Part shown: positions 1-25,100 of the stretch, piece after piece
How the letters are laid out: each line of letters starts with the position of its first letter
Numbering within the stretch: the stretch's first letter is position 1
DNA from: Burkholderiales bacterium
GTDB taxonomy: Bacteria > Pseudomonadota > Gammaproteobacteria > Burkholderiales > Nitrosomonadaceae
DNA: 64,000 bases
Assembly: GCA_024235735.1 (NCBI GenBank)
Contig: JACKLU010000009.1
Span: 24,667-88,666, forward strand
Reading direction: 5' to 3'
Translations under genes and position numbers: made by a program
The notes under the pieces: model-generated
The model's input: only the letters and a program-made list of their open reading frames with translations
The model's database searches: none
What the model was told of the DNA's origin: nothing

Positions 1-924
1 CAGCAGCGGTAACAGGAAAACATAGCCAATAACCGATATGGCGCCGGACAGAAGGCCGATTCCAAATGCGCCCGTCGGTGAAACGACATCGCATACCGAT
101 CCTATGCCGACACCGCCGGCCAGAGCGGCATTCGCCATATCCACCATCGATGTCTTGCCGCCATTCAGTTTGTAACTCAAAAAATAGGTCGCAATCGTTG
201 CACCAGACAGCGCCAGCAAAGTATTGGCAATCACTTGCGGCATGTCCTCAAGCGGCGATAGCGCTGTGGCGAAGCTTGGCCAGAAAAGCCACAGCACCAT
301 AGAGCCCAGCATCGCGAAACGATCCGATGTGGGATCCGATTCGATCGGTTTGCTGCGTTGATACTGTGTGGTCAGTACGATGGACATCGCCAGGCCGAAA
401 TAGGCGCCAAACGCATGAATGACGATCGATCCGGCCGTATCCTGGAAACCGTCGGTCAAACCGAGAGCATTATCCAGTACGATCCATTCATTGAGCAGAT
501 AAAGCGGCACCAATAAAAGCGCCAGCAGCGCATACTGAAATACGCGTAGCCGCCCAAGCACGGCGCCCATGGCGATTAAGGCGGCGGCCACTGACAGTTC
601 GGCAAATAAAATGGCATCGAGGGTATGCGGTGACAGTGCATGTCCGAAAATGCCGTTGGCGCGCAATAAAACATAGAGCGGCAATCCGGTTGCAACAACG
701 AGATAGGTGCCCGTCACCGCGCCAAAACCATAGCGGCGGACAAAAACCATCAAAAAGCCGAAACCGACCAGCAGCATGGCGAGAATATGAATGATGTAAT
801 TGTATTGCGCGACAGTGCGCGCCTCACTCATAACCGCTATCTCTTCAGCGCTGGCCCAGCAACTGAAGCTCAGCAAAAATAAACCCGCTGCACCCAGCAG
901 CATCAAGCTATGGCATTTTTTCAT
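1..924 (-). CDS. Rh50-type ammonia/ammonium (possibly CO2) channel, Amt/Rh family; 3' part runs off the left window edge
   Basis: Manual translation from ATG at 924 (absent from the ORF track because there is no stop in the window): MKKCHSLMLL...AQYNYIIHILAMLLVGFGFLMVFVRRYGF...IHAFGAYFGL...SDRFAMLGSMVLWLFWPSF...DMANAALAGGVGIGS. This closely resembles N. europaea Rh50 as recalled. Confidence 0.92.
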   Translation of the reverse strand, partial: MKKCHSLMLLGAAGLFLLSFSCWASAEEIAVMSEARTVAQYNYIIHILAMLLVGFGFLMVFVRRYGFGAVTGTYLVVATGLPLYVLLRANGIFGHALSPHTLDAILFAELSVAAALIAMGAVLGRLRVFQYALLALLLVPLYLLNEWIVLDNALGLTDGFQDTAGSIVIHAFGAYFGLAMSIVLTTQYQRSKPIESDPTSDRFAMLGSMVLWLFWPSFATALSPLEDMPQVIANTLLALSGATIATYFLSYKLNGGKTSMVDMANAALAGGVGIGSVCDVVSPTGAFGIGLLSGAISVIGYVFLLPLL

Positions 925-1549
925 ATGAATTTCCTTGTATTATCAACCTATAGATGCATCCTATAAGGTATTTCTTGAAAGAAAAATACTATTGCTGTTC
1001 TAACTCAAGCAATTCCTTGCCTGCGCGTCTGCCCTATCTAAGTCATCGTAGCGAGCCAGATGGGAAAAGCGGATACGGATTTTCTCGATTTTGCGGTGCA
1101 TCGCGAGATTAGTAGTAAAGAAGAAGTTTCGCGACGCAAAAATTGAGTAAATATAAACCGTTATCTCATTGGTGCAGTAGATGAGTCTTTAACCCGGCGG
1201 ACGCCTAGAGTCTGAACGCAATTTCCCATTTAAACAATAGGGTTATGCAAATTTGAAGAAAATAATTCTAGAGACATTTGTAGAATACCCACGCCATGGT
1301 TTCTAACGCATTGTTTTTAATATTCTGAAATTTCATAAATGCCACTGGAGCTGGTTCGCGTTGTTTTTCTGTTTGGACGCTACCAGCATCTAGTCAGTCG
1401 CCTGTTTTCGGGAAAATAATCGATTCGGGATTGAAATTTTATTCCTGGTATATCGGTGGCATGCGTGAACTGTTGCTGTAAGGATTTTTGCATGACATTG
1501 TGTGAGATCGGTGTGACGCAGTTGCTGCTGTTTCTTTCTGTCAGACTTT

Positions 1550-2872
1550 TCAATGTTTATGGTTGGTTTTTACTGCGATCGACTTATTGGAATGTGTATT
1601 GAATAATTGATAGAACTTAGGTTCGTTTGCTTGAACCAGCAGTTTGTAAAGATCCTGGTTGGTCAGTCCACGTTCAAGTTGTAGCAGTAAGGCGGCAAGG
1701 CCGGTAACATGAGCGGTGGCCATTGAATTGCCGGAAATGAAGTCGTAAGCGCCGTTGGGGAGCGTAGTAAGGATCTGTTCTCCAGGAGCCGGAACAGTCT
1801 GTGTATGGGTTTTATGGGATGTGCGAAACATGTGAGTGTGGCTTTGCACGCTGATGACACCCGGGTGGTGTGCCGGGAAGCCGGATTGGTTATCTTGCCG
1901 GTCAGTTTGAGAAGCGATGATAATGATGTCTTGTTGAATGGCTTTCTCGATCAGTCTGGCTAGAAGGGGATCGTGGGGTCCGGTTAAGCTTAAATTGATT
2001 AAGTCTACATTCATGTCTATGGCGGTGTTAAGCGCCAATGCCAAAGTAAAGCTGTTGCAGACTGCGTCGAGGCTACCTTCGGATATTTCCCAACAAGCTT
2101 TCATGGCAACGATACGACTGTCAGGCGCCAAGCCCACTATGCCCTGTCCATTGTTTGCTTTGGCGGCAATGATGCCGGCAATTGCCGTGCCATGCCCGTC
2201 ACTGAAAAAATCAACGGATTGATGGGTGACAAAATCCTTGATGACGTTAATCTGACCTTCCAAATCCGGATGTTTTATGTCTACGCCAGTATCAATAATT
2301 GCTATTGTTATATTTTTACCCGTTGCCTGATTGTGTATTTTTCCCAAATTGAACGGATGAATGCTTGATTGCAGCCGGTAATACGGGTCGCTGTATTCTT
2401 TACCCAGGACTTTAAACGTAGACATCAGCTGAACATTATCGATTCGGTTGTCATTGGATAATGCGGTGATGATTTCAGCGATTGACTGGTTTTCATTGAC
2501 CAGATAGACAACACAGTGTTCACCAATTTCACTGATCGACCACTGTGTAAGCAGTGTTAATTTGTAATCCGCCTCGATGTTGGCGGCAATTCTTTCGCTC
2601 CAGGACGAACTACCATAATCGCCCCTTTTGCGATAGGCATGATTAAATTGGCCGATAGGAATGCGATTGATGTGCTTGTCGGAATAGGTGACCAGAATAA
2701 TACGGTCAGTATAGTTGATATCAAATAGCAATGGATCGATTACCAAATCCTGCTTGGCGCTGACTGGCAACACCGAAGCGCCCAGAGTTACAAACAATAA
2801 CGTAATCAATAACAGCAATTTTTTTAAATGGGCTATTAACATAGCAGACTCATTCGGATGAAAGTGAGACAT
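1550..2872 (-). CDS. Secreted subtilisin-like (S8) serine peptidase with N-terminal propeptide
   Basis: Triad motifs IAIIDTG, HGTAIAG and SGNSMA (GTSMA variant); INLSL; hydrophobic signal peptide. The true start may be a few codons downstream. Confidence 0.9.
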   Translation of the reverse strand: MSHFHPNESAMLIAHLKKLLLLITLLFVTLGASVLPVSAKQDLVIDPLLFDINYTDRIILVTYSDKHINRIPIGQFNHAYRKRGDYGSSSWSERIAANIEADYKLTLLTQWSISEIGEHCVVYLVNENQSIAEIITALSNDNRIDNVQLMSTFKVLGKEYSDPYYRLQSSIHPFNLGKIHNQATGKNITIAIIDTGVDIKHPDLEGQINVIKDFVTHQSVDFFSDGHGTAIAGIIAAKANNGQGIVGLAPDSRIVAMKACWEISEGSLDAVCNSFTLALALNTAIDMNVDLINLSLTGPHDPLLARLIEKAIQQDIIIIASQTDRQDNQSGFPAHHPGVISVQSHTHMFRTSHKTHTQTVPAPGEQILTTLPNGAYDFISGNSMATAHVTGLAALLLQLERGLTNQDLYKLLVQANEPKFYQLFNTHSNKSIAVKTNHKH

Positions 2873-3554
2873 GCGCTAGTTCGGCAAAAATGACCTGCGC
2901 ATTGTTACGCAATGCACTAATGGCATCAGTTGTTTCCATAGCATATTTTTGTTCGCCATCTATGAGAATTTCATAAACACCGTTTTTGTATGGTCCATTT
3001 ACGATGTGACCGTAAACACTGCTTACGATAGTGTCGATTTGCGCCTTGTCCGTGTCATCTGTAAAAATCACTCGTATTAAGTTGGGTTTTTTACTTTTCT
3101 GAAGCGGTGCAGACGACTGAGCCAGAGTCCGGTATTCGTTTCCCGATAAGGTTTGTTCATGCATTGCATTGAATATAAATGTCGTTGTCATCAGCAGTAT
3201 GCAAAAAACCAGCGCGAAACTTTTTCTTGAAACTGGGAACTGAAAGAAAAGTTTCTGAAAATTATCGAGCTTTTTGCGAAAAAGCGCTAATTGAGAAACC
3301 GGCTGCGTTTCAATGCGCTTTTTCAGTTGATTAAACGACGCGTTGGACATTTGTTGCATCAGCTCTGCCTGCTGGATATTGTCGTAGACTTGGCGTTGCT
3401 GTTTTAATTCAATTCGGCACGTAATACATGTTTTGATGTGGCTCTCTACCCGTGCTTGTTCCGCAGCGCTCAGCGTTCGGTTGATGAACCAGGGCAAAAG
3501 ACTCCATACCGCACGATGTTCATGATTACTATTGATTTTGCTATTCACTGACAT
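2850..3554 (-). CDS. Membrane-anchored zinc-binding (ZAS/zf-HC2) anti-sigma factor with periplasmic C-terminal domain
   Basis: LLPWFIN...HIKTCITC (HxxxCxxC), a single TM helix, directly downstream of the ECF sigma gene. Confidence 0.85.
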   Translation of the reverse strand: MSVNSKINSNHEHRAVWSLLPWFINRTLSAAEQARVESHIKTCITCRIELKQQRQVYDNIQQAELMQQMSNASFNQLKKRIETQPVSQLALFRKKLDNFQKLFFQFPVSRKSFALVFCILLMTTTFIFNAMHEQTLSGNEYRTLAQSSAPLQKSKKPNLIRVIFTDDTDKAQIDTIVSSVYGHIVNGPYKNGVYEILIDGEQKYAMETTDAISALRNNAQVIFAELAHVSLSSE

Positions 3555-3569
3555 CTTTAGTTCCTGCCC

Positions 3570-4160
3570 TTAGTCTTCCTGAAGTGATTTTGCCAGAATT
3601 CTTCGAGCATGAAACATTCTGGTTTTTACGGTGTTTTCCGGACATTGCATAATTTCGGCGATTTCATTGTAGTGGAGGCCCTGAAAATAAGTCATTTCAA
3701 CGACTGCACGCTGCTCAGCCGACAACTGAGTGAATGCGACTTCCAGCCAGTTACTGGTTTCTACCTGAGAAATCCACTGCGTGCTTTTATCAGGAAAATA
3801 ATCCAGTTCATCATCAAATTCAACAGACCGGTCTTCATCCGCCATTGATTTCTCGACTCTTTTAAGCGCTTTGAAGTAAGCAATACCAAGTATCCAGGTT
3901 GACGGGCGGCATGTCTGGTCATAAGTTGAAGCTTTTTCCCAAACAACATACATGACATCATTAATAATTTCTTCGATATTGTTCCGCGTCCGCGTAATGC
4001 GAAAAATAAATTGAAACAATCGACTAAAATAAAGCTGATACAGTTGTTCGAATGCCTTTTCGTTTCCTGCAGCTGTTTCAGTAATTAACTGCTGCTCTCT
4101 TGCCCGCATCCTGGGTGAGGCATAAATACTTTCTTTATTATTTCCGGGCGATGTGGCCAT
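3570..4160 (-). CDS. ECF-type RNA polymerase sigma factor
   Basis: Region 2 (AFEQLY...EEIINDVMYVVW...STWILGIA) and region 4 (LSAEQRAVVEMTYFQGLHYNEIAEIMQCPENTVKTRMFHARR). Confidence 0.93.
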   Translation of the reverse strand: MATSPGNNKESIYASPRMRAREQQLITETAAGNEKAFEQLYQLYFSRLFQFIFRITRTRNNIEEIINDVMYVVWEKASTYDQTCRPSTWILGIAYFKALKRVEKSMADEDRSVEFDDELDYFPDKSTQWISQVETSNWLEVAFTQLSAEQRAVVEMTYFQGLHYNEIAEIMQCPENTVKTRMFHARRILAKSLQED

Positions 4161-4251
4161 GATTCATTTTTATTGAGACGCTGTCATTTTGGTTGCACAT
4201 ACCCGTTAATTCCAGGGCGTAATATAAATAGTTCAATGCATAGCAAAAAAA

Positions 4252-4989
4252 TTAGATTCCAAAAGTGATCGAGAACAGTATGCGATTACCGACCGCATCA
4301 GGTTCGAATTGCCAATCCAGGGAGGTGATTTGTTCTGAAGCGGCGTGAGCAGAGCCGTAGTAACGTAAATCGATGCCTATATTGGGCGAAAAGTGTATGG
4401 TAAATCCTGAAGCCCAATAGACATAGTCATAATGCAGATTCTTTTTTTGTTTGTTGTAACCCAAAGTACTTGAAAATTCGATGGAATCGGTAATGGGGTA
4501 TCGTCCGGTCATTTCATAACTGAATGACATATGTTTCTGATTATAACCATTTTCAGAAAAAGCGAGGCCCAATGTCAGCAAATCGCGAAAGTGCGTCACG
4601 AAATAAAATTCGTTGTAATCAGCCTGTCTGCCAAAAATGTTTCCATTATAAATATAACGATTCCATTCGAGGTTAAATCGCCAGTCTCTGGCTATTCGAT
4701 ATGCGTAACCAAAGTAAGGCCTAAATTCCAGTTTTGAGCGGTTTCCGAAGTCATGATCGGCAAAGTTAACTGAGGATAAAAAGGATCCTAGATAAAAACC
4801 GGTTTTGAATTCGTAATCAATATTGGCTTGAATGGATGGTTTTTTATCGCTTTTAGTATAGCCACGCCAGAAATAATCAGTTGTTCCCGTCAAGCTTGCA
4901 TTTAATTCGGCATGGCAGATGGCTGTGCTAAAGAGTAGTGGTGCGCAAAATAATAGCAGCTGTGCCAAATTGATGAAGGACATTTTCAT
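4252..4989 (-). CDS. TorF/TIGR02001-like outer-membrane beta-barrel (putative porin)
   Basis: Signal peptide; TTDYFWRGYT...PSIQANIDY...GFYLGS..S.V signature; alternating beta-strand pattern; C-terminal FSITFGI. Confidence 0.8.
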   Translation of the reverse strand: MKMSFINLAQLLLFCAPLLFSTAICHAELNASLTGTTDYFWRGYTKSDKKPSIQANIDYEFKTGFYLGSFLSSVNFADHDFGNRSKLEFRPYFGYAYRIARDWRFNLEWNRYIYNGNIFGRQADYNEFYFVTHFRDLLTLGLAFSENGYNQKHMSFSYEMTGRYPITDSIEFSSTLGYNKQKKNLHYDYVYWASGFTIHFSPNIGIDLRYYGSAHAASEQITSLDWQFEPDAVGNRILFSITFGI

Positions 4990-5482
4990 TTAGCAAAGAC
5001 ATCGAAAGGAAGCTTAAACAACAAGCAGATATGGATAAACACTCTGCCAGTATTGATTCTGAGCAATTACGCGCAAAAAAATGATTTATGAACCATGGAC
5101 TTGGATTTGTGGGTGAAAAATTTTTCATTATAGAACAGAAATTAAATAACTTAAATGTACTTCGATACAGTACTTCGATACAAATAATGAAAAACGACAG
5201 AAGTTAATGAGAACTATTATATATTTTGAACCTTTTGGCAGATTAACCGGATATACCGTATGTTAAAGGTACACATGTGTATAGGTACTTGTAATCGAGA
5301 GATGAAATAAATCTTTGAATTTATTGCCTTAACTAATTATTAAGAAAATCAATTATTTCGTTCAGTAATGCACTTATCAAATTATTGTTTGCAAGTTGAA
5401 GTGATTGACAACTTTTCGGTTACAAATTGACTGGGCCGTTTTAGTGCTTTTACCGGTACGGTTTCTAAATAAGAGAAATGAT

Positions 5483-7291
5483 ATGAAAAAATTATTAATC
5501 ATGATTGTTTTGATGGTTCTTCCGGGGTTTGTCTGGGCTAAAGGGGGCGATCGGCGGATCACTTTTGAATTAAACGACGGACCGGGTAACTGGTATAGAA
5601 ATGCAAATGGCCCGGTAGCCGGATTGGGTTCGCTTGCCGTAGGTACGCCGGGTGTTGAAGTTGTTTTCACAAGAGACGACTCCAATACCGTGCATACTTA
5701 TACCAGCCTGCTTTATCCGACTGGTGCTAGAAATATGCCTTTTGATACCGATCCCCAAAAAGGCAGTGAAAGTATCACGTTAAGGACGCCTGGCTTGTAT
5801 GTCTTTTTCTGTCAGGTGCATCCCTACATGCTCGGCGCAGTGATCGTGGATGATCCGAATACCAAAGGTCTCGACCTCGGTGAAACGATTACGTTGATTA
5901 ATGGCATTACCGTGCCTACCAGCAGCGATCTGGCAACACGCCTGCTGCGTGGTTTTATGGTATTGACCGAGCCGGGTAACTGGCAAAATTTCTCCTCTTC
6001 CGATCCATGGCATATTAATTATCCAAGTGTTCCTGTACGCATTACGGGGGGCGCAGTGATTGATCTCGCTAGCGTGCTAGAAGCCCGCTATGGCAACGAT
6101 ACTGCATTGCCATCGCTGCTGACTCCTCCACCGGGTGTAGGCGAAGTCTGGGTAAACACGCAATTTGAGAAAACTGCCAACAAACGCAAGCCGGGAGCGG
6201 CTGCTGTAGTTGATGCAACAACCTGGCAAGTAAAACGCAAGGTTTTCTTGCCGGATATCGAGATGAACAATCCGCACAATATGTGGACCGACCGCGATCA
6301 AAACCTCATTTATGTCACGGAATGGTTTGACAGCAAACTGACGATATTTGACCGAGTGTCCGGGCAGCTTATTGACCGGCTTCAGGTTGGAGAAGCACCG
6401 GCGCATGTCATGACGCGTGTAGATACCGATCAACTGCATGTTTCTATCAACGGTTCAGACGGGAATGAATCGGTCGTCGAGTTGTCACCGCTTGCTGGCG
6501 GCATTGAACGACGCATTGACGTCGGTCGGCCTGGTCCGCATGCGCATTGGATGGGACATGATGGCGGCACTATGGTAACCCCTAACGTATTTACCGGAGA
6601 CTCAACCATTTATGACTTCGTGCGAGATGGTATTCAGGATATCGTTCCAACCGGTAGCGATGAAGCGCATCCTATCGCAACGGGGATGATGCCCGATTCC
6701 AGTAAATATTACGTTGCCAACTTTCTGGATAGTACATTCACCGTTATTGAAACCGCAACAGGAAAGGTTTTAAAAACTATCAACCTGTTACAGAACTATG
6801 ATCCTGTTAGTGGCGCGATAACTGGGCCCGTTGGCGGTTTGCCGATTCAAACCCCGGTCAGTCCGGATGGCATTGCCATGGTAACGGCAAATATTTTGAC
6901 CGATACCATAACTATTGTGGATACCAAAACGGATACGCTGGTAGCTTCACTGTCTTGTGACGCCGGGTGTCATGGTGTGCAATTTGGCGCCAAGAAAGGC
7001 GGCGGCTATTATGCCTATGTCAGCAGTCAATCAGCCAATGTGTTGCAAGTAGTCGATATCGATCCTAACGGTGACGGCAATCCGAATGACGCTAAAGTCG
7101 TCGGCAGAATTTTGCTGACATCGGTTTCAAACACTGCGTCAGATGACAGGATTACGGCGCATGATGGGATGGGGGGTCAGGGGTTGTTGCCTATTCCGGT
7201 GGTATATAACGGCTGGGTGCAGAATCTGCCGAAAAGCTGGAAAGACCAATTAACACCTCAGCAGCGTGATCCATTAAATTCATCAAAATAG
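5483..7291 (+). CDS. Secreted protein: N-terminal type-1 copper cupredoxin domain plus YVTN/YncE-like beta-propeller
   Basis: ATG at 5483 after AAGAGA, signal peptide MKKLLIMIVLMVLPGFVWA. T1 Cu ligands VHT...CQVHPYM. Propeller repeats (YVANFLDSTFTVIE, VTANILTDTITIVD) with His at blade starts. Confidence 0.82.
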   Translation: MKKLLIMIVLMVLPGFVWAKGGDRRITFELNDGPGNWYRNANGPVAGLGSLAVGTPGVEVVFTRDDSNTVHTYTSLLYPTGARNMPFDTDPQKGSESITLRTPGLYVFFCQVHPYMLGAVIVDDPNTKGLDLGETITLINGITVPTSSDLATRLLRGFMVLTEPGNWQNFSSSDPWHINYPSVPVRITGGAVIDLASVLEARYGNDTALPSLLTPPPGVGEVWVNTQFEKTANKRKPGAAAVVDATTWQVKRKVFLPDIEMNNPHNMWTDRDQNLIYVTEWFDSKLTIFDRVSGQLIDRLQVGEAPAHVMTRVDTDQLHVSINGSDGNESVVELSPLAGGIERRIDVGRPGPHAHWMGHDGGTMVTPNVFTGDSTIYDFVRDGIQDIVPTGSDEAHPIATGMMPDSSKYYVANFLDSTFTVIETATGKVLKTINLLQNYDPVSGAITGPVGGLPIQTPVSPDGIAMVTANILTDTITIVDTKTDTLVASLSCDAGCHGVQFGAKKGGGYYAYVSSQSANVLQVVDIDPNGDGNPNDAKVVGRILLTSVSNTASDDRITAHDGMGGQGLLPIPVVYNGWVQNLPKSWKDQLTPQQRDPLNSSK

Positions 7292-7408
7292 TTTTTTGTT
7301 AACCAGTTTTCATCCATGAACATAACTCTATAAATTAATTGTGATAATTCATGAAAATAGATGAGAATTCCAGTGGAAAGGTATGCAATTGTAGCCAAGA
7401 CAGTGATT

Positions 7409-7452
7409 GGTTCATCCGGCAAGTGCGTACTTGCCGGATGAACCGATTTTTT
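7409..7452 (+). terminator. Rho-independent terminator-like hairpin downstream of the cupredoxin gene
   Basis: Perfect 16-bp stem GGTTCATCCGGCAAGT-gcgt-ACTTGCCGGATGAACC followed by GATTTTTT. Confidence 0.7.
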
Positions 7453-7508
7453 GTTGAGATACTGGCGATGGACATCGGAGGAACTGGCCTTTCATTTGAT
7501 GGATTAGT

Positions 7509-7804
7509 CACTGCTGTCCCGCTAATTTTCCTATCAAAACAAAGTTGGTTGGTTATCATATTCGTATTGACTAGTAGGTGGATCGCCTCGCAGCAGTGTC
7601 ATGAGATCACGTTTTTCAAACAGATTGAGCTGCAATAACCGTATTATCTGCTGCATGCTGATCTGAATCGTTGACTGGAATTTGATGAACGCGATCAGTA
7701 AATAGACGCACAATGCGATCCAGATTTGCGTCATGACGGCATTTTTGCTGGTTCCGACAAATGATTTGATTTTAAGGTTCTGTTTGATCCATTTGAAGAA
7801 CATA
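7509..7804 (-). mobile_element. IS4-family transposase 3' remnant with its terminal inverted repeat
   Basis: FFKWIKQNLKIKSFVGTSKNAVMTQIWIALCVYLL is typical of an IS4 C-terminus. End sequence TTAGCGGGACAGCAGTG finishes at 7509. The 5' part is missing. Confidence 0.8.
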
Positions 7805-8563
7805 TCGAAGAAACCGAACAGCGCATCGCACGATTCGACCAGCATTTGCTCACTGGATTGGAAAGCGAACGCAACTGGCTGGTGTTATTACAAACCTTAC
7901 TCGGCATTGATCTCATCGGTGCAGCCATGTTATTAGTAGAAATTGGCAACGATATGGATGCCTTTGGCAGCGCGGATCGTCTGGCTTCCTGGGTCGGCAT
8001 CTGCCCAATAACGAATCGGCAGGCAAACATAAATCCGGATGAACACGAAAAGGCGACAGGTATGTCCGTCGTCTTCTGTGTGAGTTTGTTCATGCCGCCA
8101 GCCGAGCCACTTCTGCATTCAAGGCAAAGTTCCAGTCACTCATCGTGCGGCGTGGGTACAAACGATCCATCATCGCACTACTGGGATACAAAATACTGCG
8201 TACCATTTTCTTCGAGACCTTTGCACGGCTACTGCGCGGCACGATAATCGCGTTAAAAATTTGCGAAAAATGCTCATTTACCCCGTGTAAACTCCGCTTT
8301 TTCGCAAATTTTTGCCTTATTCTCGCACCGCTCATGACACCGTGCAAAGGTCTCTCTTCATGTTCAAGCGGCGCGAATATTACCGGGACAGCGCCACTGA
8401 CTACGAGAAGATTTCTGTTCAGCGTAATGCCGCACGCTGGATAAAGACGCTGATTCGGCACGGTTTAATCAAACCAGCCCAAGTCTGATTAAATGCCAAT
8501 TCTAATATGACCTTGACTGGTCAGGATTATACTCGCCTGATTGGCTGTTTCTTTCACGTTAAA
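7805..8563 (+). pseudogene. IS110-family recombinase/transposase C-terminal remnant, frameshifted and interrupted by a MITE
   Basis: LLQTLLGIDLIGAAMLLVEIGNDMDAFGSADRLASWVGICP, then after a frameshift RRLLCEFVHAASR...RRGYKRSIIA, and after the MITE YRDSATDYEKISVQRNAPRWIKTL. The right-end position is approximate. Confidence 0.8.
8214..8354. mobile_element. 141-bp MITE, copy 1
   Basis: 15-bp perfect TIR GAGACCTTTGCACGG/CCGTGCAAAGGTCTC; 5-bp TSD TCTTC (8209-8213, 8355-8359); near-identical copy at 25101-25241. Confidence 0.92.
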
Positions 8564-8796
8564 TTTGCACTTATTTATACGAATCCGCTTGGTGTGTTCT
8601 GGGATGATTCAAAAGAAGGGAAGAACGGAAGATTAAAATGCTGTTAGAACGTTCTCGGATGCGGGCGGGTTGCACTGAGTTAACACTGATTTCAGTACAA
8701 CCCTGTTTTATGAAGATTCAACACTCTTTTTCCAATGATAAAAGGATTTCATTACAAGAAGTTGCAATTAGAGGATTTTTTTCTCGAGAGAAACGA

Positions 8797-8961
8797 TCAG
8801 TAATTTCCGATTATTTCCCGTCGAATATCCTTGTCGTCAAAATAGCTGTCATCATCGGCACATTCCATTTCGTCGATAATTCTCGCCACACGACTATCCT
8901 CGAAAAGATCTTCAACAACACAATCGTCATCAAACTTGTCAAAAGAAAATTCAATTTTCAT
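8797..8961 (-). CDS. 54-aa highly acidic small protein of unknown function
   Basis: AAGGAGG SD before ATG at 8961. MKIEFSFDKFDDDCVVEDLFEDSRVARIIDEMECADDDSYFDDKDIRREIIGNY (19 D/E). A candidate promoter lies upstream. Confidence 0.65.
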   Translation of the reverse strand: MKIEFSFDKFDDDCVVEDLFEDSRVARIIDEMECADDDSYFDDKDIRREIIGNY

Positions 8962-9002
8962 TTTAAACACCTCCTTGATTAAACTGGGCAAATCTATTAG
9001 AC

Positions 9003-9052
9003 ATCAATTAGCGTATCTGTAAAAGCGAAGAAAGTCAGTGATTTATCCCACA
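9003..9052 (-). promoter_or_regulatory. Candidate class II CRP-type promoter for the small acidic gene
   Basis: AGTGA-tttatc-CCACA at 9037-9052 (2 mismatches to TGTGA-N6-TCACA), centred 41.5 nt upstream of the TSS (9003) implied by -10 TACGCT (9015-9010, minus strand). Confidence 0.5.
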
Positions 9053-9239
9053 ATTCCCTTTTTGGGTGTGCAAGTAATTCTTTCTGGGAAGGAAACTGTC
9101 GTTTCCTGCGCTGTCCTGTCGGGTCGTCAGATTCACTTATTTCAGGAAAATCAATCCTATGCTAGTATTTAACCTAAACTGGGAATCCAGGTTTAAGGAT
9201 CTGGCCAATACATGAATAATAATCTGGGGAGAGCAATGG

Positions 9240-9962
9240 ATGCCTACACTGCGCCAAATTCCAATTGACCGGGCATGTGCGATGCTTTCGGCCATAAAGG
9301 AATTTCACGACCTGTCCGCTTCTGATCTGGAAGAGATCGCCAGGCAGTGCAGCTGGTATCGTTATGAAGAAAACGAAGAAATTGTACATTTTCAGGATAA
9401 ATCGAACAGTGTCTTTTTTATTGCTCAGGGCGACATAAGAGTCACTTATCATGCGTTATCCGGGCATGAAGTCATTCTGTGCGATCTGACAACCGGAGAA
9501 ATGTTTGGCGAATTAACCGCAATCGACGGAAAGTCCCGCTCGGCGACAGTCATCGCCAGAAACAGCGTACTGCTGGCCTCCCTGACAGCTATTGATTTCA
9601 AAAATGTTATCTATGCCAGCCGTCAGGTGGCCGAGGCCATACTCAAACGGCTTGCGAGTGAAGTGCGCCGATTAACAGAGCGCGTTTACGATTTCAGCAC
9701 ACTCGCTGTCAGCAACCGCATACAGGCTGAACTGTTGCGTCTGGCGAAAAACCATATGACGGGCCCCAATGTTGCGGTTGTCTCTCCTTCTCCGACACAC
9801 TTTGATATCGCCAATCTGGTCAGCACGCACCGCGAGGCCGTAACGCGAGAACTCAGCAATCTGGCCCGCAACAACCTGATTTTGCGGAAAGGGCATGATC
9901 TGCACATTCTGGATGTGGCAAGACTGACGGATATGGTCAATCTGGTGCGCGGCAGTAGTTGA
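9240..9962 (+). CDS. Crp/Fnr-family transcription regulator (CRP-like)
   Basis: cNMP pocket FGELTAIDGKSRSAT; HTH with CRP-type recognition helix THREAVTRELS; no FNR Fe-S cysteine cluster. Confidence 0.9.
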   Translation: MPTLRQIPIDRACAMLSAIKEFHDLSASDLEEIARQCSWYRYEENEEIVHFQDKSNSVFFIAQGDIRVTYHALSGHEVILCDLTTGEMFGELTAIDGKSRSATVIARNSVLLASLTAIDFKNVIYASRQVAEAILKRLASEVRRLTERVYDFSTLAVSNRIQAELLRLAKNHMTGPNVAVVSPSPTHFDIANLVSTHREAVTRELSNLARNNLILRKGHDLHILDVARLTDMVNLVRGSS

Positions 9963-10439
9963 GTAAACCCGGGTTGCCGGCGCGTGCACTCGATGTACAG
10001 ACGATTTTTTCTCTGTTTTTATACCTTTCGCAGGTTCCGGGCAGAATTTTCCAGTTCTTCCTTGTTCATCGCCCCATTCCTATTCTTCGGTTAAACAATT
10101 AATTCGAATGGTGAATCACACGATGGTATTTAGGATTAAGGGATCTGGCTGATTTACAATAAACCCCGTTCAGCGAATGTTAGGCGATGGTAGTTCGAGA
10201 GGGCTAAAGTCGACACGTGCATAGCCAAGCGGCATTGACCATGTCAACCGGTTCAAAGCAGCTTTCCAGTTTTTTATCGGCATTACCCAGTTTCTGGAAG
10301 CTTCTTGAATTGCCGGAAAAATGATTTTTTTGGTGTGATCTGAAGTGTTCTGGTCTTCATGGAATCCGCAGTTTCATAAAATTAATCAATGAAATTGAGG
10401 ACGAAAGATGGAGAAATTACCCCGTACAGGATGTAACCA

Positions 10440-10850
10440 GGGATTCACCAGTGAGCACGAGAGATTTATAGTGCAAAACGCCCGCGTAATGATTTGGCAG
10501 ATCAGGGTGTGCAAACGATACCGTATCAGTCCGAACATTACGACAGAAACTGGGTTTGTGTTGCAAGTAAAAACGGTAGCTTAAGGTGACAACCGACTCC
10601 GGGCATCTATTCGCCAATTGCCCCTGATGTTTTGAGTAGGAATTTGCAAGTAGCGCCTGAAAAAGCGTGAGCGAGCGATATCAGTGTGCCGCAGCAAATC
10701 CTCGTTCAAGTGTCTAAAACGCTTAGATGACATCAAAATCGGAGAGCGATGTTGCTTCGGTATCAGCAGGCAGTGCCTGCTGATAGACTGCATGGTGCCC
10801 AGCATAGAGGCGGTGCGAGTCTGATTCAGGCTTTTACGTTGAGCTGCGGG
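10440..10850 (+). pseudogene. Heavily degraded IS3-family transposase OrfB fragment
   Basis: Stitched across frames: IHQ*AREIYSAKRPRNDLADQG / LGLCCK*KR*LKVTTDSGH / SPIAPDVLSRNLQVAPEKA*ASDIS. These match IS3 OrfB segments; many stops and frameshifts. Confidence 0.6.
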
Positions 10851-11108
10851 AATCTTCGATGGCAATGCTAAGGGAAAGACACAAATGCAATTATATAAGG
10901 TCGACAGTGCCGAAGTGCCATCAAGGGGCGGAACTGTCCGTAGTAGCGTTGAAATGACTGTAATGGTCATGGAGCAAAGGGTCGGCGTTATTCAACCGAA
11001 ATTTTCGGTCAACAGCCATGTAATGGTCGGTTAAATTATTATGAGTTCAGGGTTTTTCATAAATAAGAAAGCAATTTTAGAGGTAAATATTCTTCGACAT
11101 TATTCATT

Positions 11109-12239
11109 TTATCCGTAAACATCTTCATTGAACTGACATTGTATTCGTTCGATCTCGGCGCGATGTTCGATGAGTGCGTTGACGCAGTCGACATCGAGTT
11201 TTTCTCCGGCTAATTGTCTGAGTGTGTCGAAGGCCCGATCGTTGCTCCAGGCTTCCTTGTATGGTCGGCGTGAAGTCAGCGCGTCGAAGATATCGGCGAC
11301 TGCCACAATGCGTGCTTCAAGCGGAATATCGTGATTGATTTTGCCGCACGGATAGCCACTGCCGTTGACTGCTTCGTGGTGGAATTCGGCAATGTTTCTC
11401 AGGATATCGATATGCGCAATACCGTCCAGGCTGAAGTTTGCGACGATTTCATCGATCATTTCCCGGCCTCTGCGCGCATGCGTGTTCATGATTTTTCGTT
11501 CTGACGCACTCAGTGGCCCCGGTTTTAACAGAATACTGTCCGGAATGGCGATCTTACCGATGTCATGCAGCGGCGAAAACATAAAAACATATTCGATATA
11601 CTCATCGTTAAGCTGATATTGTCTGGCCAGCGATTGCGCTATCAACCGGCTGTATCGCGACATGCGATCCAAATGGCTGCCTGTTTCGGGGTCACGCAGA
11701 TGGGTGATCTTTCCGGTAGTTTTCAATGCGGCGTTCATCACATGAATGGTGGACAATTCACTGATGACCATCAGCGCGATCAGATGGCCAAAAACATCAA
11801 GTTCTCTGAGCGCTTTTTCGGTAAACACATTGGTTTGGTACGAATTGAAGAAAAGAAACCCGATAAATTCGCCCCCGTGAAACATCGGCATGGTATAACT
11901 GGCGGCATAGCCTTGGCGACCGATGCGCTTGGTATGTTCCTGGTTGCCTTGCTCAAAAGTAATCAGGTTATTGACAACGCGGGGGCGCTTTTTTTCCAGT
12001 ATTTCCTTTAGCGACCTCGCCTGATTCAGCGGTATTTGGTAGTTATTCAATGGATTGTCTTCACCGCTGCTGTCGATATAAGTTCTTAGAACATGGGTTT
12101 GTGAATCGAATAACGTCACGGCAATGCGTGCTACAAAATCAAGATTCTGTTGAATAACCCGATGCGCGCTGACAAGCTTGTCTTTCAACGGCAAATGGCT
12201 GTTTAAATCTTCCAGTGCATCTCTATGATTAAACATCAT
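11109..12239 (-). CDS. GAF + HD-GYP domain protein (cyclic-dinucleotide phosphodiesterase-like)
   Basis: ETGSHLDRM, LHDIGK, HHE..NGSGYP, ARIVAVADIFDALTSRRPYK; N-terminal GAF. Start placed at MMFNH (12239); the ORF track extends to 12410. Confidence 0.88.
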   Translation of the reverse strand: MMFNHRDALEDLNSHLPLKDKLVSAHRVIQQNLDFVARIAVTLFDSQTHVLRTYIDSSGEDNPLNNYQIPLNQARSLKEILEKKRPRVVNNLITFEQGNQEHTKRIGRQGYAASYTMPMFHGGEFIGFLFFNSYQTNVFTEKALRELDVFGHLIALMVISELSTIHVMNAALKTTGKITHLRDPETGSHLDRMSRYSRLIAQSLARQYQLNDEYIEYVFMFSPLHDIGKIAIPDSILLKPGPLSASERKIMNTHARRGREMIDEIVANFSLDGIAHIDILRNIAEFHHEAVNGSGYPCGKINHDIPLEARIVAVADIFDALTSRRPYKEAWSNDRAFDTLRQLAGEKLDVDCVNALIEHRAEIERIQCQFNEDVYG

Positions 12240-12676
12240 CGGAATAATCGCTTGTATTTGGAAAGGCGGTGGTTTGAACAGTCCTGTCCAGATTAGCTTT
12301 CTCAATACAGAAAAAAGAGCACCCTTGAAAACAAAGGTGCCTGATTTTAGGGGAGAAATGAGCAGGTTGGAGTCCAAGGGAGTAAAGACCACAAGCTGCT
12401 TGACTGCCATTGTACCGCTAATACTGATATACGATTGCTCGAATAATCATCGGTTTGCATGCCATTTCTGGGGATCGGGGTGTATGCTGTGCGCTGCGTG
12501 TAAGAAATCGTAGTCTGGACCTTGTATTAGAGCTATTGCTTGTCTGCCGTTTTCTGGTCGCGCTTGAGTTCGAGCTGTAGACAAGGAATAATGCAATCTC
12601 GGTAGAGAAAGAGCTGATCAGCGGTTTATGGGAGCAATCGAAATCTTAACGCAGGTGGAAAAGAGAGAGCAATGAA

Positions 12677-24581: not shown

Positions 24582-25100
24582 TGATACATCCTCCGTAAGT
24601 TTGGAAATAACATCTTCAACCGCCACCATGATAATAATAGCTGAGACTTTTGCAAAACTCTATTTCATGAAATTTGAAATAACGAAAATAATGGGTTAAT
24701 TAAATTTAAAAAGACTTGGATTTAAGTAATAAGAGCAATTAATTTCCGGCAAATGCAAGGAATACAGTCGTTATTGTAAAAATACACGACTTTCGTTCAT
24801 AGATATTTTGATACTTGAATTGTGCGAGTGTTTTAATAAATGTAGATGAACATCGCCATTAAAAGTGAAAGTAATACACTCTTATTTATAGACTAATATT
24901 ACAGGGTTTCTCTAAAAATCCAGATTTTTCTACGACACTTTGTTGTTCAAAAAATGTTTTCTTACATATCAATTATATGCTGAGTCAATACTCATAGTCT
25001 TGTTATGTGCCTCAAAATTGAGAAAATCTGCGATCGTTCTTCCACACGGCTTGCTACGATTGCTTGAGTCAGACAAACTCCCAATCTATATGTATATCAT

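Follow-up and report, generated by a model that had tools for sequence, protein, structure and literature searches.

The 64,000-nucleotide window analysed in this study (positions 24,667 to 88,666, forward strand, of contig JACKLU010000009.1, assembly GCA_024235735.1, from a Burkholderiales bacterium of the Nitrosomonadaceae) carries a 54-codon open reading frame (ORF) for a very acidic protein, divergent from the gene of a CRP-family regulator. Here, the small ORF is found to be a genuine gene that is under purifying selection, is transcribed and is limited to one Nitrosomonas subclade. Its main context is the locus of rh50, the gene of an Rh-type ammonia channel, of which it is the upstream partner. 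An earlier note on this DNA, made from the sequence alone, overlooked this context and proposed that a class II CRP promoter drives a horizontally acquired peptide acting as a DNA mimic, an anti-defence protein or a metal chelator. As a whole, the observations are explained best, with slightly more confidence than doubt, by a promoter-proximal gene of the rh50 locus that would be controlled by a CRP-type regulator and would encode a partner-binding protein.

The small acidic ORF is a genuine Nitrosomonas gene

8797–8961, minus strand: small acidic protein gene, 54 codons, with the ATG at 8961 and the stop TAA at 8799–8797 (ORF list)
8970–8974, minus strand: Shine-Dalgarno sequence GGAGG, 8 nt before the ATG (read from the sequence)

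The product of the small gene, MKIEFSFDKFDDDCVVEDLFEDSRVARIIDEMECADDDSYFDDKDIRREIIGNY (MKIEF...IIGNY), has 54 residues, among them 13 Asp and 6 Glu (35.2%) and two Cys, and a net charge of approximately −12.5; its tryptic peptides are IEFSFDK, FDDDCVVEDLFEDSR and IIDEMECADDDSYFDDK. The length, the acidic content, the two Cys and the strong Shine-Dalgarno sequence had been described in the earlier note, and the letters of the window agree with that description. The GGAGG is intact in eight of nine aligned loci, while the ninth, that of Nitrosomonas sp. Nm51, has GGCGG.

A word-indexed search of 5.8 billion proteins returned seven clusters of homologues, each of exactly 54 amino acids (69–98% identity) and from Nitrosomonas metagenome-assembled genomes (MAGs). 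When 1.84 billion cluster representatives were scanned exhaustively with HMMER, only two clusters emerged, both of close relatives; one of them is new, more distant and 56 amino acids long. Among 185,579 species genomes scanned, the small gene is present in seven species, all of them Nitrosomonas, and the cultured Nm51 has a 62-amino-acid version with 45% identity. Pooled over eight pairs, the ratio of nonsynonymous to synonymous polymorphism (pN/pS) is 0.24 in the sense frame versus 0.41–1.3 in the other five frames, and the differences at codon positions 1, 2 and 3 number 55, 67 and 158. The pairwise ratio of nonsynonymous to synonymous substitution rates (dN/dS) is 0.08–0.5, with dS up to approximately 1.6–2 and dN of approximately 0.2. 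Moreover, the long antisense frame of the ORF is interrupted in relatives. The gene is also transcribed, as RNA contigs are present in at least 10 metatranscriptomes from at least seven studies. The earlier note had staked its proposal on a transcript and on homologues under purifying selection, and both were found. Collectively, the frame-specific substitutions, the uniform 54-amino-acid length without indels at dS >1, the conserved Shine-Dalgarno sequence and the RNA coverage indicate that the small ORF is a real gene.

The small gene lies at the chromosomal rh50 locus

1–924, minus strand: rh50 (Rh-type ammonia channel), 5′ two-thirds, cut by the window edge; Pfam Ammonium_transp
1268–8593, strand not applicable: strain-specific insertion of 7.3 kb between the small gene and rh50, defined by comparison with relatives

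In every unrearranged related contig of sufficient length, the gene order consists of the gene for the 240-amino-acid Crp-like regulator, the divergent 54-amino-acid gene, a spacer of 366–937 nt, the Ammonium_transp gene (454–465 amino acids) and usually a gene for a response-regulator/Hpt protein. This synteny at the chromosomal rh50 locus was observed in approximately 20 related contigs. The transporter is assigned to the Rh type because the window protein matches the N. europaea Rh50 structures 3B9W/3BHS (5.5e-138), and a tblastn search with the protein of the related contig L007 gave 90% identity over 308 amino acids. The earlier note had suggested looking for linkage of the peptide gene to crp genes; such linkage exists, since the regulator gene adjoins the small gene in every locus that has the 54-amino-acid form and upstream sequence. 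In Nm51, the small gene is likewise linked to rh50, and its upstream neighbour encodes a PAS-GGDEF-EAL protein and not a Crp.

Two further features of the locus were observed in relatives. The Rh50 of this clade has a heptad-like C-terminal extension of approximately 60 amino acids (L007 5532–7734 and equivalents), and the gene for the response-regulator and Hpt protein follows rh50 by 30–300 nt in most relatives, which hints at a signalling role of the locus.

The 7.3-kb insertion is missing from the contigs L014 and L015, whose flanks are 95–98% identical, and from RNA contigs of the metatranscriptome runs X2, X12 and X13, in which 1267 is joined to 8628/8634. The earlier note had placed the gene pair among insertion sequence (IS) debris and taken this as a sign of horizontal acquisition. 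IS fragments do exist, but on one side of the pair only, as part of this insertion. Because L014 and L015 are without it, the debris represents a strain-specific interruption of a conserved locus and no sign of acquisition; the small gene belongs, in conserved synteny, to the chromosomal rh50 locus, and the insertion with its IS fragments is peculiar to this strain type.

A CRP-type regulator adjoins a conserved dyad upstream of the small gene

9240–9962, plus strand: CRP-family regulator, 240 amino acids, with a cyclic nucleoside monophosphate (cNMP)-binding domain and a Crp-type helix-turn-helix (Pfam, NCBIfam, PDB and residue mapping)
9037–9052, centre 9044.5, minus-strand reading TGTGGGATAAATCACT: CRP-type dyad TGTGG-GATAAA-TCACT, exact pattern conserved
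9160–9168, plus strand: possible extended −10 of the regulator gene (TGCTAGTAT); the intergenic alignment shows conservation of the block TACTAGCA

The regulator matches the Pfam families cNMP_binding (PF00027, 5.9e-16) and HTH_Crp_2 (PF13545, 2.6e-11). Its top NCBIfam match is CRP (PRK11753, 5.9e-26), at 91 bits and thus under the equivalog cut-off of 266, and its closest full-length solved relatives in the PDB are E. coli CRP (5e-17) and Vfr. The identity to CRP is approximately 29%, with approximately 30 additional N-terminal residues. The phosphate-binding cassette is retained (GEMFGEL...SRSAT versus GDFIGEL...ERSAW in CRP), including the equivalents of G71, E72, R82 and S83, and is invariant in orthologues. 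Similarly, the recognition helix is retained (THREAVTRE versus CSRETVGRI), including the equivalents of R180, E181 and R185 that read TGTGA. The regulator thus has the intact cNMP pocket and the R-E-x3-R helix that the earlier note had recognized. In contrast, the residues of activating region 2 (AR2) of CRP, namely, H19, H21, E96 and K101, are replaced by Ser, Tyr, Ser and Asp. The dN/dS of the regulator is 0.05–0.09. An FNR-type oxygen sensor was also considered and rejected; the regulator has three Cys only (C13, C37 and C81), without CX2CX5C, and FNR (PRK11161) scores 18.5 bits. Judged by its sequence, the regulator adds a new member to the CRP branch within the CRP/FNR family; as it has no Cys cluster, it is not an FNR.

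The dyad is part of a strongly conserved region. Of 23 related loci, 21 have the exact pattern TGTGGGNTAAATCACT, those of Nm51 (45% protein identity) and L023 (54%) among them. Around it, an invariant block, AATTGTGGG.TAAATCACT.ACT, was observed in nine diverse loci; it spans approximately 25 bp and is therefore longer than the 16-bp dyad. In the same nine loci, invariance extends to TA.GCT, to TGT.TAAT and to both GG pairs in the Shine-Dalgarno sequence. Approximately 95 nt before the ATG of the small gene align without gaps, while the crp-proximal part of the intergenic region is unalignable between lineages, with indels of >230 bp. The spacing from the dyad to the −10-like elements is fixed and free of indels, whereas the distance from the dyad to crp varies by >230 bp. 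Furthermore, the conserved block varies less than the coding sequence of the small gene.

The sole symmetry in the block is GTG-N8-CAC. The dyad matches 8 of 10 positions of TGTGA-N6-TCACA, including both GTG/CAC cores, and the letters AGTGA-N6-CCACA at 9037–9052 and TACGCT at 9015–9010 had been given correctly in the earlier note. GTG-N8-CAC cores occur 17 times in the 64-kb window versus approximately 16 expected, so the match alone is at chance level, and the significance of the site derives from its conservation. Further copies of the box in the window amount to two matches with three mismatches, which is within chance. On inspection, the block contains no GG-N10-GC, and it was therefore not accepted as a sigma-54 element.

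Based on these comparisons, the conserved block is likely a real operator, that is, a predicted protein-binding site. The adjacent regulator is the obvious candidate, and by our inference the likeliest binder, because it keeps the DNA-reading residues of CRP and adjoins the site. The earlier idea of a cyclic-nucleotide-switched small protein survives in this form: given a real gene, a CRP-type regulator and an invariant dyad at a fixed distance, control by a CRP-family, probably nucleotide-sensing regulator is a reasonable proposal.

Most RNA contigs of crp start at 9185–9232. In run X2, a crp contig (44x) starts at 9074, approximately 100–150 nt upstream of the starts in other runs, which suggests a second crp start near the conserved box; CACAAT at 9049–9054 (plus strand) overlaps the box.

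RNA 5′ ends place the probable transcription start at 8989

8988–8989, minus strand: probable transcription start G8989, from the furthest RNA contig 5′ ends
8996–9001, minus strand: −10-like TCTAAT, 7 nt upstream of G8989 (assignment inferred)
9010–9015, minus strand: TACGCT, the −10 of the earlier note; TA.GCT is invariant, with TAGGCT in Nm51

RNA ends were taken from Logan contigs of public metatranscriptomes placed on the window, with the following 5′ ends at the small gene:

X11: 8989
X25: 8989
X12: 8988, then 88 unrelated nt
X2: 8977/8, then directly Illumina adapter
X7: 8977
X9: 8977
X1: 8975
X28: 8974
X31: 8974
X30: 8971

The ends at 8989, 8989 and 8988 come from three unrelated studies. 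In these ten runs, none of the expressed-class contigs extends into 8990–9003, and no contig end lies near 9003 in any run. The spacer at 8990–9100 is crossed solely by contigs of low, uniform depth, which belong to X8, X10 and X13 (3–6x) and to X3–X6; the latter runs, labelled 'RNA?', show a uniform depth of approximately 5x over genes and spacer and were set aside as DNA-like. T.TAAT is invariant in nine diverse loci, with TTTAAT in L001, L013 and L021, and has canonical spacing to the RNA end. In the window, TTTACA is located 16 bp upstream of TCTAAT. A generic promoter scan found no sigma-70 promoter at the small gene.

Transcription from 8989, with TCTAAT as the −10, is favoured with reasonable confidence. 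With this start, the dyad centre at 9044.5 is located at approximately −55.5, which corresponds to neither the class II (−41.5) nor the class I (−61.5) position by E. coli rules. The class II box at exactly −41.5 proposed earlier depends on an assumed start near 9003, where no end was found; the RNA contig ends cluster at 8988/8989 and 8971–8978, and the AR2 residues are not kept. With the dyad near −55.5 instead of −41.5, the regulator could either activate or repress. TACGCT as a −10 is unsupported by RNA, but it could be a second, condition-dependent promoter.

Several observations weigh against the small gene being the first gene of an rh50 unit controlled by the adjacent regulator. The RNA ends are defined by contigs and not by raw reads, and the end at 8989 may be the processed end of a 9003 transcript; the X12 end in particular is weak evidence for a start site because of the 88 unrelated nt upstream of 8988. 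At −55.5, the dyad lies on the wrong helical face for activation by E. coli rules, and MAG L005 has TGTAGG in the left core. Furthermore, orthologues of the regulator that share its recognition helix (60–75% identity) occur widely among Nitrosomonas and related MAGs, where they adjoin unrelated genes (SulP, CstA and ABC transporters), and a search for the box near these more distant orthologues found none, whereas Nm51 has the box yet no adjacent crp. The adjacency of the regulator is therefore suggestive and not proof. Finally, 78 of 80 metagenomic rh50 loci are without the small gene or the box within 2.5 kb upstream. The small gene and the box are present at one of the other two loci; the last is of the window type, with the small gene beyond the 2.5-kb flank. 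Since most rh50 loci are without the small gene, Rh50 functions without the small protein, and the small gene is a lineage-specific addition to the locus. In the window strain itself, the small gene and rh50 are 7.3 kb apart.

Two alternative arrangements of the control region are each unlikely, although they survive better than the others. In the first, two promoters coexist: one with TACGCT and a start at approximately 9003, with the dyad at −41.5, would be used only when the regulator is liganded, and the other, with TCTAAT and the start at 8989, would be constitutive and dominant in the sampled communities. The invariance of both hexamer-like motifs across lineages is consistent with this arrangement, as are the contigs of X8, X10 and X13 that cross 8990–9100 in RNA libraries. 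However, these crossing contigs have a uniform depth resembling DNA carry-over, those of X3–X6 are DNA-like, and no end near 9003 was observed. In the second arrangement, which we regard as equally improbable, the conserved block is a repression operator or is bound by a different factor, and the regulator may act on other genes or on its own gene alone. The block is out of phase with respect to 8989, the conservation runs past the 16-bp dyad, and, as described above, the Nm51 box and the regulator orthologues occur apart from each other. Against this, the only symmetry of the block is of the CRP type, the recognition helix of the regulator matches that of CRP, and the regulator is adjacent in all loci of the 54-amino-acid form.

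The class II promoter proposed in the earlier note, with TACGCT as the −10, a start at approximately 9003 and a horizontally acquired DNA-mimic, anti-defence or metal-chelating product, is very improbable. TA.GCT does retain the T, A and final T needed in a −10, the dyad does fall at −41.5 if the hexamer is set at −12 to −7, and a very acidic product with IS fragments nearby could suggest such a peptide. However, the expressed-class RNA contigs stop at 8989, the AR2 residues H19, H21 and K101 are Ser, Tyr and Asp, and the gene is located at a syntenic chromosomal rh50 locus with a strain-specific insertion and not in a mobile island. Moreover, the Cys are not conserved, the protein shows no similarity in PADLOC, PHROGs, Pfam or PDB, and the family is confined to Nitrosomonas.

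Shared transcripts of the small gene and rh50 in some strains

8667–8703, minus strand: conserved hairpin, 94 nt past the stop of the small gene, without a U-tract
1206–1222, minus strand: second conserved block, AAATTGCGTTCAGACTC, upstream of rh50 (spacer alignment of L001, L007, L021 and L022)

The RNA joints described here are read on window coordinates and belong to strains without the insertion. An X2 contig (831 nt, 21x, with adapters at both ends) extends from rh50 codons (706–1031) across the spacer and the small gene as far as 8977/8. Similarly, in an X12 contig (178x), 8628 is fused to 1267 and the sequence goes on toward rh50, while an X13 contig links rh50 codons with 8742. The depth of the small gene often exceeds that of its neighbours, for example, 15x versus 3x in X7 and 178x versus approximately 53x for rh50 in X12. 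On the simplest reading, the small gene and rh50 are transcribed as a single unit, and some of the transcripts are terminated or processed past the small gene.

The hairpin at 8667–8703 has an RNAalifold consensus of 10 pairs, four of them with compensatory changes, and a free energy of −19.2 kcal/mol (z = −4.5); it is preceded by a conserved block, GGAAAAA.TGTGTTGA (to approximately 8735). This hairpin may be the processing or partial-termination element. Rfam, applied to the 5′ leader, to the spacer and to the IS region, gave no match to a known RNA family.

Other elements of the spacer vary among strains. At 1206–1240 (minus strand, ATTGTTTAAATGGGAAATTGCGTTCAGACTC), relatives have TCACAC where the window has TCAGAC, and this region might be an rh50 promoter or a further regulator site. 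The 176 nt upstream of rh50 (1032–1207) are missing in the X2 and X13 strains. A repeat of approximately 70 nt in the spacer of L014, L003 and L013 has a copy at 24993–25060 of the window, and small mobile repeats appear to populate this spacer.

The position of the small gene on the rh50 transcript also bears on the idea that the ORF is a leader peptide or upstream ORF, in which translation of the Asp and Glu codons tunes rh50 via the downstream hairpin and the peptide itself is functionless. We consider this highly improbable. The ORF is rich in Asp and Glu, lies upstream of rh50 on a shared transcript in some strains and is followed by a conserved hairpin, but the hairpin is 94 nt past the stop and has no U-tract, so a translating ribosome cannot reach it. 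In addition, the non-acidic residues S23, V25, I28, I29 and M32 are invariant, dN/dS is well below 1, and the spacer varies in length from 366 to 937 nt and reaches 7.3 kb in the window strain. That the ORF is no gene at all but a chance open frame in a conserved rh50 5′ leader RNA, as the absence of family or structure matches and the low AlphaFold2 confidence might suggest, is scarcely credible given the frame-specific substitutions, the constant length without indels at dS >1, the Shine-Dalgarno sequence conserved at the right distance and the broken antisense frames.

The small protein is predicted to be disordered and may bind a partner

Among homologues, the invariant core of the small protein consists of S23, V25, I28, I29, D30, E31 and M32, in addition to acidic runs and a C-terminal Tyr or Phe. 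In contrast, the Cys vary; C14 is replaced by Ile or Asp in some homologues, and C34 is replaced by Phe in half. The functional role that the earlier note had attached to the two Cys is therefore not borne out, and a Cys-metal site is ruled out for the same reason. An EF-hand was also sought, and no register of the protein fits the EF-hand loop. Searches of Pfam, NCBIfam, PHROGs, PADLOC and, by profile, the PDB returned zero matches to the small protein. There is also no phage or defence context, and acidity alone is shared with the DNA mimics, anti-defence proteins and chelators to which the earlier note had likened it.

The AlphaFold2 model, based on an alignment of eight sequences, has low confidence, with a predicted local distance difference test (pLDDT) score of 55, and contains helices at 21–32 and 44–51. 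Such a model is compatible with an acidic chain that is disordered for the most part and forms a single amphipathic helix (SRVARIIDEM). The protein is strongly acidic and has no hydrophobic segment; it would be cytoplasmic and probably acts by binding a partner via the conserved amphipathic helix and the C-terminal aromatic residue. Based on genomic association, that is, guilt by association, Rh50 or the response-regulator/Hpt protein is favoured as the partner.

Any role of the small protein related to Rh50 or ammonium is proposed tentatively, and we hold it to be somewhat less probable than its absence. The more specific view, in which the small protein would be dedicated to regulating the Rh50 ammonia/CO2 channel of ammonia oxidisers, is very doubtful. 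On this view, the system would be the counterpart in function of GlnK-AmtB, made with an unrelated disordered protein whose level is set by a cyclic-nucleotide-sensing CRP homologue. Identity with a PII protein (GlnK/GlnB) itself was rejected, since there is no Pfam or NCBIfam match, and the 54 residues with two short predicted helices stand against the approximately 112-amino-acid PII domain with its T-loop.

Contents of the insertion and neighbouring regions

1550–2872: S8 subtilase
2850–3554: zf-HC2 anti-sigma factor
3570–4160: extracytoplasmic function (ECF) sigma factor
4252–4989: Gcw_chp protein
5405–7291: cupredoxin-like and beta-propeller protein, 628 amino acids
7534–8461: IS110- and DDE-transposase fragments

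These features make up the content of the 7.3-kb insertion. The same subtilase is located upstream of rh50 in the metagenome contig L031. Near the end of the insertion, a palindromic element of approximately 141 bp (8214–8354), with the ends GAGACCTTTGCACGG...CCGTGCAAAGGTCTC and the inner arms AAAAATTTGCGAAAAA/TTTTTCGCAAATTTTT, overlaps the 3′ end of the IS110-family transposase fragment (7846–8247) and runs past it. In metatranscriptome assemblies, this element has many different flanks and reaches approximately 4500x in X2 and approximately 1800x in X12. It has no Rfam match and could be a repeat resembling repetitive extragenic palindromic (REP) sequences or miniature inverted-repeat transposable elements (MITEs), or an IS-associated non-coding RNA.

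On the other side of the regulator gene, 9963–11108 is a gene-poor region of 1.1 kb, where the relatives L003–L006 hold a gene for a 911-amino-acid UvrD-like/ankyrin protein. It is followed at 11109–12410 by a gene for a GAF and HD-GYP-type protein of 433 amino acids, which is syntenic in L003 and L013 and may give the Crp-like gene a neighbour with a function in nucleotide signalling.

Discussion

In the mechanism that we propose, the small gene would ancestrally have been the first gene of the rh50 transcription unit, behind a CRP-type dyad. The divergent CRP-family regulator would bind this dyad in response to a cyclic nucleotide, and transcription would proceed from G8989 via the −10 TCTAAT. 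A nucleotide second messenger would thus set the level of the small protein and, by read-through, part of rh50 expression. The small protein would bind a partner, and the genomic association points to Rh50 or ammonium handling. In the window strain, the 7.3-kb insertion has come to lie between the two genes.

The regulator and its site resemble E. coli CRP and Pseudomonas Vfr in the two-domain architecture, the phosphate cassette (G-E...R-S-A), the R-E-x3-R motif and a site with GTG-N8-CAC cores around an N6 spacer. They differ in the low identity to CRP, the extra N-terminal residues, the missing AR2, the site TGTGG/TCACT (8/10) and its position at approximately −55.5.

In glnK-amtB, the gene of a PII protein lies just upstream of the gene of the Amt ammonium channel, and PII regulates the channel. 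The locus described here is similar in that the gene of a small soluble protein is located directly upstream of an Amt/Rh-family channel gene and is at least sometimes co-transcribed with it. However, PII is a 112-amino-acid trimer with a ferredoxin-like fold, whereas the small protein is acidic, has 54 residues, is predicted to be disordered and has no similarity to PII in sequence or predicted fold; moreover, most rh50 loci are without the small gene. In cyanobacteria, the CRP-family regulator NtcA, which reads GTA-N8-TAC and senses 2-oxoglutarate, governs proteins of approximately 50–65 amino acids, IF7/GifA and PirA, that bind proteins of nitrogen metabolism. The logic may be similar here, although there is no homology between the small proteins. 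Enterobacteria have small transporter modulators, namely, SgrT, MgtS, AcrZ and MntS, which are usually encoded outside the operon of the transporter; AcrZ and MgtS are membrane-anchored. The small protein falls into a similar size class and might follow a similar logic of transporter modulation, while being acidic and without a hydrophobic segment.

As reported in a comparative survey, ammonia-oxidising bacteria have the Rh50 channel and no Amt gene (PMC5209957). The study of RH50 neighbourhoods gives other neighbours for N. europaea and mentions no such small gene (PMC5209957), and in a CRP/FNR meta-regulon study of nitrifying bioreactors, only FNR is discussed for Nitrosomonas (PMC8510549). 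Our literature search found no partner protein of Rh50, no transcriptional or CRP/cNMP control of rh50, and nothing on the small protein or the regulator.

Ammonia-oxidising bacteria depend on the supply of NH3, and this locus offers an uncharacterised small protein of one lineage, whose gene is encoded and transcribed together with rh50, as well as a CRP-family regulator whose cyclic-nucleotide cassette is intact. The block upstream of it, with its CRP-type symmetry, is among the most conserved non-coding blocks of the locus. The locus is accessible to experiment, since the small gene and its box are both present in the cultured Nitrosomonas sp. Nm51. If the proposed links did not hold, the small protein would be one more conserved orphan; if they hold, they would provide a handle on how nitrifiers control substrate uptake. 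Were the GlnK-like reading true, second-messenger signalling would be tied to the entry of the substrate, NH3, in nitrifiers.

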